Shown here piece by piece: positions 18,201 through 21,200 of a stretch of 32,000 bases of DNA. Origin of the DNA: Sinorhizobium meliloti (GTDB lineage: Bacteria; Pseudomonadota; Alphaproteobacteria; Rhizobiales; Rhizobiaceae); contig NZ_JAGIOS010000001.1 in NCBI RefSeq assembly GCF_017876815.1, positions 2,880,001-2,912,000 on the forward strand, read 5' to 3'. Each line of letters begins with the position of its first letter. Position 1 is the stretch's first letter. Position numbers: made by a program.

Positions 18201-21200
18201 CGCCCCTTCACCTAGTGACTTAGGCCAGAACCAAGATCGGCCAAGCTTTCAAGCCGAAAGTACGTGCCCAGAGGACCTTGCCGGTCCTTGCGCACTTCCG
18301 CCACGGGCGGAAGATGTACTTGTAGCCCGGGGGAGGCGGGGGAAGAACGTTCTTCGCCATTGCCTGCTCCCTAAGGGGCGCTGTTAACCTTGACACAAGC
18401 TTCGTGCGATACTATTTGGAACTGCGACATCCCGTATCGCTGCTTGAGTCTGAGGCTTCCGTTCGGCAAGCCCCTTTGCAAGCCCGAGACGGAAATTCTG
18501 TAGAAGGGAGATCTGGCTGCAACCAATCTCCCTTTTATATTAGGTTTTTTCCCCTCAAAAAATTGAACCGGTTGCGCGCTGCTTCATCCGAGACGCCGTG
18601 ATTGCGGGCTATGTCGTAGTGGCTGCTGCCGCGGATCTGCAAGTGTCGAGGCATCAAGAATTCAGCAGCAAACTGATTGGCCTGCGGTTCGCTTCTCTTA
18701 AACGGAGCCACGGCGTCCCTGGTCGTCCGGGCGAGGGGCACGCCGGTGTGCAAGAACAGATGCCCCATCTCATGTGCCACCGTGAAACGGGCGCGGCCGT
18801 CGCCATTAACAGCCGCCTCGTACACGTCTTCACGGATCTGAATAAAGTGTCCACTTGGATCCGTGAGACCCTCTGCACCATCCATCTCGACGAACGTTCC
18901 AACCTCGAAACGAACTATGTTGAGCTGATAATCCAGTACCTTTTCCAGTATATCAATGACGGGGACATACGGGGATCGCTCCAGTCCAATGATCGATCGC
19001 AACCTCTCTGCAACGGAGTGAATGTTGTCCCACGAACGCGGCGGCACCACAAAGTCTTGACTACTCATTAGGCTTTGTTCCTCTACTCAGTATGTTCCGT
19101 ATCTCCTCCAGATCGGATGCAGTTAAGTCATTCATTCTTCTCGCCATAAGGCCCGCAGTGTCTCTCCCAAGAGCATTGTGGGGCTCTAGTACGAATGCTT
19201 TTCTTGAGCGATCGGCAGCGATTCTGATCTTGTTGGCAGCTTCAGCCGCCAGACCATAAATGCGAACTACGATCTCTTCAAAGCCCGATGGTGGCGACTT
19301 CTTGCCGGTTTCAATCGACGAAATGAAAGCAGCCGATTTGTCGAGTTTTTGAGCCATCTCAATCAGCTTCTCGTCACGGTCAATTCGAATCTTGCGAAGT
19401 TCCTTTCCCAGCTCGGTCAACATTTTTCTTCTCCTTTTGTGCGCGCAAAGGCGGTTCAGGGGCGCGTACAATGATGAATATAGGCCGACGCGGAAAATAT
19501 TCAAGGCAAAATCGTAAAATCGTTTAACCTGTCAGGTAAAATTTCGGGGCGACCGAGAGAACGTGTTGCGTTAATCGGCGATGTCGATTAACGTTCGGGT
19601 AACTAAGGGTGATTTGCAGGCTGTCCTGATCGCGGACCTCGATTAGAGGGAACACTCGCCGGGCCTTAGGGGAGAACTCACCGCTCCCCGCCTAGGCTGC
19701 ATTTTGCCAATTTCCCGGCTGGATGATCAATGATCCTTACTGTCGAACTCGAAAATGCCGAGCACCCCGAGGTTGCCCTTTGCTTTGACCGCGAAGGGCT
19801 GGATTTCTTGATGGCTAAGCTCGAAGCGCTGCGAAATACGCCCGACCACATGCATTTGATGACGCCATCATGGGCTGGCGACTCGCTCACCGAAGAAAAG
19901 CAGGGTGGCGAGCGATACGAGCTCGTGAACAGTTTGCGACTGGTTCGGGTTCCGTAAAGGCCATCACACTCGGCGCATAGGAGAAATGCGGCCAAAATCT
20001 ACTGGCCCATTTTACCTCTGCTGCGGCTAGCTCTCGGTTTTCGACATAACCACGTAAATTGCATCTCCGACCGTGATAACGGCTTCGGCCAAGTCATCTG
20101 AAATTTCGATATTGAACTCGTCCTCAATCATCATGACGATTTGAGCGACTTCGAGATAGTCGGCGCCGAGGTCATCTACGATGGACGCGTCGCCCACAAC
20201 CCGGGCAGGGTTGATGCCCAACTGCTCGATGATTATTGCTCTTACACGGCTAGCGACGTCCGCGCTGGAGTTTTCCACCGATGCGCTCCCTCAAACGGCC
20301 CTGACTGCTCAGGCAGGCCTCAGGACTTCTTCACTTTCACGGCAAGCGCATTCGCTTTATCGCGATCGTTCCCGGCTTTCCTGATGATGTCACGGGCCTG
20401 CTCAATTGAAAGGCTGTGCTTCTTTCGAAAGTAGCTGAGCTCGTAAGGCTGTCCAGCGGCTACCCGATGACGGTCACGGCCAACGGCCTTCTTGTTGTCC
20501 GGCATAGGCTTCCTCCCAAAGTTGACCGCAATTAACGGCGGTCGATTGAGGTAAGTTCAACGTTTCGCACCTTGAGGAGATGAGCACATGCCCGCTTACC
20601 TCGTCGTCCCCTACGACTCCGGCCCCACAGGCTTCCCCGGCATGCAAGCCCTCATCAACGAGAAGGCTGCAGAAGGGTATGCGCTCCACCAGGTAATAGA
20701 GCGCAGCACGTACCAGTGGGTGCTGATCTTCAAGCGCGAGCCCGGTCGGTCCTGAAAAATTGCGACACCATCAAAGTCATGGCTCATAGTCGGCAAGGAA
20801 GGGTTCCTGACGCCCACCGATGGGGTCCCATCCCGTCAGTAACTCCATCGTCCACGAAAGAGCCTCCAACTGCTCCTTAACATCTCCGCCGGTGTTGTCT
20901 TTCAGTTCGCGATAGGCGGCTTCCATGCGCTTTAGGAATCGCTGCTGAAACGTCGGGTCGGTTTCATTCAGCGTCTGCACCAAGCAAGCAGATACCATAG
21001 CCATCCCGAGTTTAGCTCGGTGCAGATCTGATCGTTTGTCTTTGTCTTCCATGTTTGATCCCCAAGGTTAACCGATGCCCGTCCTAAAGAACGCACGGCA
21101 CGAGAAGTTCGCGCAGGAACTCGCCAAAGGTAAGACGGCCGACGAGGCATATCAGCTTGCGGGGTTTAAGCCTAACCGGGGAAACGCAGCACGTTTGAAT

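Follow-up and report, generated by a model that had tools for sequence, protein, structure and literature searches.

Acyl carrier proteins (ACPs) are defined by their cofactor, and the well-studied natural exception is, to our knowledge, the mitochondrial ACP (mACP) of Plasmodium. In this essential protein the attachment serine is replaced by Phe113, which has been modelled in a hydrophobic pocket of Isd11; Phe113 aids the binding of Isd11 without the cofactor, and its replacement by alanine abolishes the binding (PMC8547962). A further point of comparison comes from laboratory work: an obligate apo-ACP, the S39A mutant of the Synechococcus protein, suppresses E. coli growth, and glycerol-3-phosphate acyltransferase is reported to be inhibited by apo-ACP (PMC4736557, with reference to Keating et al. 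1995). Since obligate apo-ACP mutants suppress growth, unmodifiable ACPs are biologically active. In Sinorhizobium meliloti strain 1021 six ACPs have been studied, i.e. AcpP, NodF, AcpXL, RkpF, SMb20651 and SMc01553 (PMC5686131), and our literature searches brought up no account of phage or rhizobial ACPs without the serine. Here we analyse a gene for such a Ser-less ACP homologue, situated in a prophage within a 32,000-nucleotide stretch of S. meliloti DNA (contig NZ_JAGIOS010000001.1, positions 2,880,001 to 2,912,000; this whole stretch is called the window). The gene, its ribosome-binding site and the codon that sets it apart are positioned as follows.

20027-20278, minus strand: coding sequence of the Ser-less ACP homologue, 83 aa, GTG start
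20286-20291, minus strand: Shine-Dalgarno sequence AGGGAG, 7 nt 5' of the GTG start
20156-20158, minus strand: codon 41, TAT (Tyr), at the phosphopantetheine-attachment position; the plus strand reads ATA

A preliminary description, made from the sequence alone, had placed an ACP homologue of the AcpP type at exactly this position, with the likeness extending over its whole length, and both statements hold. By sequence and predicted fold the 83-aa product belongs to the ACP superfamily. It matches the Pfam family PF00550 (PP-binding) with 37.5 bits (cut-off 20.8, E 2.9e-9) as well as 104 ACP sequences of the PDB at E <= 1e-3, and it can be aligned over its full length to solved AcpP structures, the best being 2n57 of Brucella melitensis (E 6e-19), followed by 1f80 and 2x2b of Bacillus subtilis. 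The AlphaFold2 model (mean pLDDT 85) has the four-helix ACP fold, with helices at residues 5-20, 41-55, 61-66 and 70-81, and Foldseek comparison with ACP crystal structures gives TM values of 0.88-0.95 and rmsd values of 0.6-0.9 A. The protein is also strongly acidic (8.9 kDa, pI ~4.05, 17 acidic and 4 basic residues). As for the ribosome-binding site, AGGGA is present in 7 of the 8 family members in the alignment of upstream regions, while the S. fredii-group outgroup has AGAGAG; a consensus scan upstream of the gene found no promoter.

The 12-residue motif stretch of the product aligns over DDLGAD-S-LDTVE of the AcpP structures, which identifies residue 41 as the attachment position; in the AlphaFold2 model it is the first residue of helix II. 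The plus strand reads gag-ata-gtc at 20153-20161, i.e. gac TAT ctc on the coding strand, and the codon is one base away from TCT, as had been noted before; TCT is what the Ser-bearing relatives have here. The hallmark of a holo-ACP, the serine of the D-S-L motif, is absent, Tyr41 stands in its place, and no second DSL-like motif is found in the 83-aa sequence. The protein is thus without the defining feature of a functional carrier. Twenty contigs of independent S. meliloti assemblies carry the identical protein, which excludes a read error at Tyr41.

A search of 5.8 billion proteins showed that the family is restricted to Sinorhizobium/Ensifer and Shinella, and that the residue at the attachment position exists in three main states. 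Among the distinct protein alleles, Tyr is found in 27 (S. meliloti and S. medicae), Phe in 25 and Ser in 50, and a lone Ala in one truncated copy of S. americanum; the preliminary description had named retention of Ser in all homologues as a refutation of its view, and this is not what is seen, i.e. the tyrosine is no isolated mutation. In the relatives, codon 41 is TCT (Ser), TAT (Tyr) or TTT (Phe), and TAT recurs in 12 different DNA alleles coming from isolates, metagenomes and IMG/VR contigs. A change of one base in TCT can give Phe, Tyr, Cys, Pro, Thr or Ala; the full-length genes with a replacement show Phe or Tyr only, and Cys, Pro, Thr and Ala were not found at codon 41 among full-length copies. 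As in Plasmodium mACP, it is a conserved aromatic residue that replaces the attachment serine. All three states can even be found in one genome: S. medicae WSM419 has a Tyr form on the chromosome (ABR60737), a Ser form on pSMED01 (ABR63635) and a Phe form on pSMED02 (ABR64726). In a scan of 1.84 billion cluster representatives we found 15,966 relatives; among the best 150 of these, the single-domain ACPs retain Ser, with the exception of the Sinorhizobium family and one protein with a Ser-to-Pro change, hence loss of the serine is rare among close ACP relatives. Public annotation names all family proteins "acyl carrier protein", and one record carries a lipid A biosynthesis GO term, i.e. the database label is given although acyl carriage is almost certainly impossible for the Ser-less forms.

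The question whether the Ser-less lineages are still under selection was approached with a set of full-length DNA alleles, 26 distinct ones in all, of which 12 are Tyr, 9 Phe and 5 Ser; their sources are genomes of isolates, plasmids, metagenomes and viral contigs. A neighbour-joining tree was built without codon 41, with a Ser-type ACP of the S. fredii group as outgroup and with the Ser-type copy of strain 1021 included. Parsimony on the rooted tree places one change from Ser to Tyr and two changes from Tyr to Phe, one of the latter nested inside the Tyr clade. Substitutions were then counted by Fitch parsimony on intact alleles, again without codon 41, and compared with an equal-rate neutral expectation of 77% non-synonymous changes, with the following results.

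All Ser-less branches: 42 synonymous, 51 non-synonymous, omega ~0.36, binomial p 1.5e-6
Tyr to Tyr branches: 21 synonymous, 30 non-synonymous, omega 0.42, p 0.0025
Phe to Phe branches: 12 synonymous, 12 non-synonymous, omega 0.29, p 0.003
Ser to Ser branches (outgroup-rooted run): 39 synonymous, 37 non-synonymous, omega ~0.28

With a neutral expectation of ~70% non-synonymous changes the pooled result is estimated to be still significant, at roughly the 0.001 level. Within residues 36-45, the only amino-acid change seen in the 26 DNA alleles is at residue 41 itself, and DDLGAD-x-LEVAQ, the helix-II docking surface, is invariant. As omega on the Ser-less branches is significantly below neutral and similar to that of the Ser-bearing ones, the constraint has not collapsed after the loss of the serine, and purifying selection continues in the Ser-less lineages. 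The idea of a decaying gene, which the preliminary description had listed among its explanations, finds no support here: the 83-codon frame is intact in the window and in 21 distinct Ser-less DNA alleles, and the depletion of non-synonymous changes is significant. A first pairwise estimate of the ratio of non-synonymous to synonymous change (dN/dS) had given 0.5-0.6, not significant within the classes; more alleles and counting on the tree made the picture clearer. The selection test is a crude one and recombination is evident, the allele P0024 being a recombinant with a Tyr-type N-terminal half and a Phe-type C-terminal half. In one Tyr-type copy from a viral contig (L108 222-542, also L226; IMGVR_UViG_2858763595_000008) a stretch of ~23 codons that includes the motif is duplicated internally, and the junction holds an ambiguous base; this is probably an assembly artefact.

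The gene is phage-borne, as stated earlier, and the surrounding prophage can be followed from its left end, where a tRNA gene and an integrase gene (196-1570) probably mark the attachment site on this side, to packaging and head genes on the right:

196-271: tRNA-Lys(CTT), directly before the integrase gene
359-1570, minus strand: phage-type integrase
within 12449-14572: C5 cytosine methylase, 707 aa
within 16930-18186: GcrA-like regulator, left of the small terminase gene
17581-18186, plus strand: NusG-like gene (Pfam NusG), left border of the cargo slot
21075-21575, plus strand: small terminase subunit (Pfam Terminase_2, 72.8 bits), right border of the cargo slot
21579-22013: N-terminal fragment of the large terminase gene terL
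22156-23706: istA of an IS21 element
23719-24456: istB of the IS21 element
24596-25516: C-terminal fragment of terL

The ACP gene lies between the NusG-like and small terminase genes, on the strand opposite to both. To the right of the small terminase gene follow the large terminase, portal, DUF2213 and major capsid genes, and the combination of C5 methylase, GcrA-like and NusG-like genes is common to the whole phage group. An IS21 element splits the large terminase gene, therefore the prophage in the window is defective. In other strains (L001-L004) the same prophage, with an identical ACP, has insertion sequences at differing places in or near the packaging genes, and the packaging module seems to have been hit repeatedly. 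Cargo of the defence type is found elsewhere in the window, between the portal and DUF2213 head genes, as two genes within 26884-29154: a trypsin-like protein (26884-27762) that matches the PADLOC candidate PDC-S45 (E 2e-106) and a putative AbiC-like abortive-infection protein (28285-29154).

An IMG/VR search anchored on the NusG-like protein gave 75 related phage contigs with enough sequence on the side of the slot. Sixteen carry an ACP of the family (12 Tyr, 4 Phe, 0 Ser) and 58 carry none; the remaining one, the distant phage L277, has a Ser-type ACP at 48% identity in the same slot. Apparently complete prophages are found among the carriers of the Tyr/Phe gene. In other Tyr/Phe prophages the ACP and NusG-like genes are likewise convergent, the former lying ~140 nt past the stop of the latter, and a variable stretch and then the small terminase gene follow. 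The slot measures 1.0-3.9 kb across the related phages, and its alternative contents are QueC-like, ComJ-like, GNAT, DUF2750, DUF2188 and uncharacterised proteins. This patchy presence, together with other cargo in the same slot, indicates that the ACP gene is optional cargo in a hot spot. Its orientation opposite to the flanking phage modules and its own ribosome-binding site are likewise typical of cargo genes. We conclude that it is a prophage cargo ("moron") gene of Sinorhizobium temperate phages.

The family is also present outside such prophages. Phe alleles are found in a degraded prophage remnant adjoining groES-groEL, which is borne by megaplasmids of the pSymA type and by accessory plasmids (150-370 kb); in S. 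meliloti and S. medicae (L005-L009, L018, L201, L202 and L204) the Phe-type ACP, a decayed prophage (holin, terminase pieces, GNAT) and groES-groEL occur together. Of the Ser alleles, the close ones belong to a prophage remnant of the S. medicae megaplasmid, whereas the distant ones are found on pSymB (strain 1021), next to a relic of a GcrA-like gene (S. fredii group) or among small chromosomal genes (Shinella). In all contexts examined the neighbours are phage regulatory, packaging and cargo genes, and we saw no linkage to fatty-acid, polyketide, lipid A or acyl-ligase genes.

Within the slot of the window the immediate neighbours are the following:

18535-19068, minus strand: M78 peptidase gene (Pfam Peptidase_M78; PADLOC capP, 1.1e-16)
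19061-19504, minus strand: helix-turn-helix (HTH) gene (Pfam HTH_31; PADLOC capH, 1.7e-5)
19730-19957, plus strand: Imm32-like small gene, convergent with the ACP gene (Pfam Imm32, 27.2 bits, cut-off 27.0)
19990-20007, no strand: G+C-rich hairpin from the consensus scan, a possible terminator, between the convergent ACP and Imm32-like genes
20320-20505, minus strand: DUF3606 gene (Pfam DUF3606, 30 bits), 41 nt upstream of the ACP gene

The preliminary description had proposed an operon of the ACP gene with the DUF3606 gene. In the window co-transcription is plausible since the two genes are on the same strand and 41 nt apart, and the arrangement returns in the prophage type represented by L112. 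In our neighbour table of 57 loci, DUF3606 accompanies the ACP gene only in these two; it is missing from all other phage and plasmid contexts, which rules out the operon as a general feature. The loci without DUF3606 have a different conserved upstream region of 150 nt, which agrees with that of the window only in its final ~20 nt, where the ribosome-binding site lies. This region (L113 7840-7895, also L116, L005 and L013) includes, on the strand opposite to the gene, part of a tRNA-like sequence (Rfam tRNA, 32 bits), perhaps left over from an attachment site or from a phage tRNA that has decayed; a genuine tRNA gene at this place was considered and rejected, as ARAGORN found none.

The HTH and M78 genes, placed between the ACP and NusG-like genes, resemble the CapH/CapP regulators of anti-phage systems. 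The pair is specific to the prophage of the window and absent from the other ACP-bearing phages. It is divergent from the Imm32-like gene (18535-19957), and the three may form a regulated module; an Imm32-like gene also adjoins the Ser-type copy in the S. medicae plasmid remnants. The PADLOC defence-system models gave no match for the ACP, DUF3606, Imm32-like and 91-aa neighbour proteins. As to the hairpin, the region has no more terminator-like sites than are expected from shuffled sequence. Across the 57 loci there is no conserved partner gene next to the ACP gene, and as none of the neighbours is a constant companion, none is a candidate for an obligate partner.

Other ACP-like proteins without the serine came up in the searches. 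A viral one on a Streptomyces prophage contig (L110 346-585, IMGVR_UViG_2872980847_000001) has Asp for Ser and the motif LGAD-D-QD (GADDQD), and it is identical to a protein of Streptomyces sp. 769; it was set aside because the database search left it as a singleton with no family. The product of the gene that follows it has a basic C-terminal region that, by eye, gives a Lsr2-like impression. Four proteins from the representative search (P0158, P0173, P0164 and P0166) are multi-domain and contain ACP-like repeats in tandem, two or three per protein; several of the repeats have Glu, Trp or another residue for the attachment serine, and some of the N-termini are signal- or lipoprotein-like. To judge from their sequences these repeats are possibly another class of non-carrier ACP domains.

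As the ACP fold and the helix-II docking surface are kept, action by protein-protein binding is the most likely role of the Ser-less ACP. We give a probability of roughly 0.45 to the reading that it works by protein binding as a competitive mimic, and not by acyl carriage. Phosphopantetheinyl transferases are serine-specific, and with Tyr or Phe in place of Ser the protein would receive no 4'-phosphopantetheine and would carry no acyl chains. It would be expected to dock onto proteins that recognise ACP helix II and are normally bound by host ACPs; the resulting complex would be non-productive or regulatory, and the phage or the lysogen might benefit from it. In such a complex the aromatic side chain would be placed at the mouth of the cofactor channel of the partner, where the cofactor arm normally exits. 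The common feature of Tyr and Phe is the ring, and by analogy with Plasmodium mACP this ring may take the place of the cofactor arm. One can go a step further and speculate that a cofactor-free mimic, its aromatic residue imitating the (acyl-)phosphopantetheine arm, lets the phage or lysogen block or hijack an ACP-dependent enzyme or regulator of the host. This we regard as a tentative proposal, with holo-ACP synthase, lipid A or phospholipid acyltransferases and the enzymes of specialised rhizobial surface-molecule ACPs as possible targets.

Several observations weigh against mimicry. There is no conserved neighbour gene fit to be the partner, about four fifths of the related phages do without the gene, which means that it is dispensable for the phage, and the prophage of the window is itself defective. 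Damaged copies exist: L202 has a frameshift, L203, L204 and L209 have an altered C-terminus, and P0047, P0061 and P0165 are truncated. An omega of ~0.36 is only a moderate constraint for an ACP, and it comes from a neighbour-joining tree, Fitch parsimony and an equal-rate expectation, all of them crude, in a family where recombination is clearly present.

It is also conceivable that the protein serves a single host or phage partner as its obligate subunit or activator, with the ring plugging the acyl-phosphopantetheine pocket and the complex being independent of the fatty-acid status of the host, as in the mACP-Isd11 pair. The restriction to aromatic residues (52 alleles, two Tyr-to-Phe events) fits such a role of the ring better than a simple loss of function, the effect of Phe113Ala in Plasmodium points the same way (PMC8547962), and bacterial ACP is a stable subunit in the solved structures of MukBEF and Nfs1-ISD11. 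Against a dedicated subunit speaks the lack of a co-inherited partner gene in the slot or its vicinity, where the neighbours vary between phages; moreover, LYR-type partners are described as eukaryotic (PMC11293456). The evidence fits competitive mimicry equally, and we consider a dedicated subunit rather unlikely. We hold the same opinion of a functionless relic, i.e. a gene that lost its serine by a single base change and has drifted since then, its intact appearance being explained by its short length and a recent loss. Each Ser-less state is indeed one base from TCT, the gene is optional among related phages, and several copies are damaged; many reside in degraded prophage remnants on plasmids, and in the prophage of the window IS21 interrupts the large terminase gene. 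Moreover, omega is estimated only roughly, and parsimony may be led astray by recombination. But a neutral gene of 252 nt would, at the observed synonymous rate, have collected ~185 changes along the tree, several stops among them, whereas non-synonymous changes are significantly depleted on the Ser-less branches, in the Tyr and Phe lineages separately as well, to a level similar to the Ser-bearing ones. The 21 distinct full-length Ser-less DNA alleles also outnumber a handful of damaged copies, codon 41 shows aromatic residues only, and it is the Tyr and Phe forms that reside in apparently complete prophages, while close Ser forms are seen in remnants only.

Two further explanations concern the tyrosine itself. 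Tyr41, or another residue, could take the cofactor or be nucleotidylated or phosphorylated, so that the protein would remain a carrier or a modified protein; a hydroxyl is available at the same position and the recognition motif of holo-ACP synthase, DDLGAD-x-L, is fully kept. Yet equivalent prophages that are apparently complete have Phe instead of Tyr, a residue that lacks the hydroxyl and was derived from Tyr twice, which makes Tyr41 very unlikely as an alternative modification site, the serine specificity of the transferases is established knowledge of this enzyme family, and the sequence offers no other DSL-like motif. The chance of such a modification is accordingly very small. Smaller still is that of a sequencing or assembly error in an ordinary ACP gene: the difference from Ser is a single base, but the identical protein on the 20 contigs of independent assemblies and the 12 DNA alleles with TAT refute it.

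It is instructive to compare this competitive mimic, if it is one, with the known ACPs. The housekeeping AcpP proteins, represented by the alphaproteobacterial one of Brucella melitensis (2n57) and by the Bacillus subtilis ACP (1f80/2x2b), share ~50% identity with it over the full length, the four helices, a pI of ~4, the DDLGAD-x-L motif and a helix II that starts at the attachment position. The phage protein differs from them in having Tyr for Ser and Gln46 for the helix-II Glu41 (E. coli numbering), and its gene is in a prophage cargo slot, away from fatty-acid synthesis genes. Much closer are the Ser-bearing orphan ACPs of Sinorhizobium, Ensifer and Shinella, such as CAQ51288/B2FDC9 on pSymB of S. 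meliloti 1021 and ABR63635 on pSMED01 of S. medicae WSM419. They are direct relatives with 59-88% identity, the same helix II (a 14-residue stretch) and the same ribosome-binding site, and the Ser-type copies of S. medicae also lie in prophage remnants with the same Imm32-like neighbour. As these orphans have kept Ser (TCT), they could be genuine carriers. The pSymB orphan of strain 1021 is outside the six ACPs studied there (PMC5686131), and its neighbours differ from those of the phage copy.

Phage-encoded proteins annotated as ACP are also known from isolated phages, jumbo and others, of Burkholderia, Ralstonia, Xanthomonas, Brevundimonas and Prochlorococcus, and a preprint predicts a contact between a phage ACP and FabZ in another system. 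They differ from the present protein in that they belong to unrelated phages and have less than 60% identity: a tblastn search of 50,697 phage records found only such distant ACPs and no member of the Sinorhizobium family. The engineered apo-ACPs and the apo form of E. coli ACP are unmodifiable or unmodified, as the phage protein is predicted to be, and they still fold and affect the cell, growth being suppressed on over-expression (PMC4736557); they are laboratory constructs or a state of over-expression, whereas the phage protein is the product of a natural gene.

The closest parallel in function is the mACP of Plasmodium falciparum, which is also a natural ACP with an aromatic residue in place of the attachment serine, retained under selection. 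The two differ in that mACP is eukaryotic, organellar and essential and binds the LYR protein Isd11, while the Sinorhizobium family is phage cargo that the phage can do without. The nearest relatives of the latter are Ser-bearing Sinorhizobium ACPs, which means that the serine was lost independently of mACP, and the family is a second, independent case of a Ser-less ACP, in bacteria and phages. Should a host client of ACP be blocked or redirected, this would be a new type of function for phage cargo, and should the mimicry be real, it would be the first cofactor-independent function of a bacterial or viral ACP, convergent with that of the Plasmodium protein. The Ser, Tyr and Phe states of otherwise near-identical proteins, sometimes in one genome as in S. 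medicae WSM419, form a ready experimental series on a cofactor-free ACP scaffold. The protein might also become a tool for studying how ACPs and their partners recognise each other in rhizobia, which use several specialised ACPs for symbiosis-related surface molecules.

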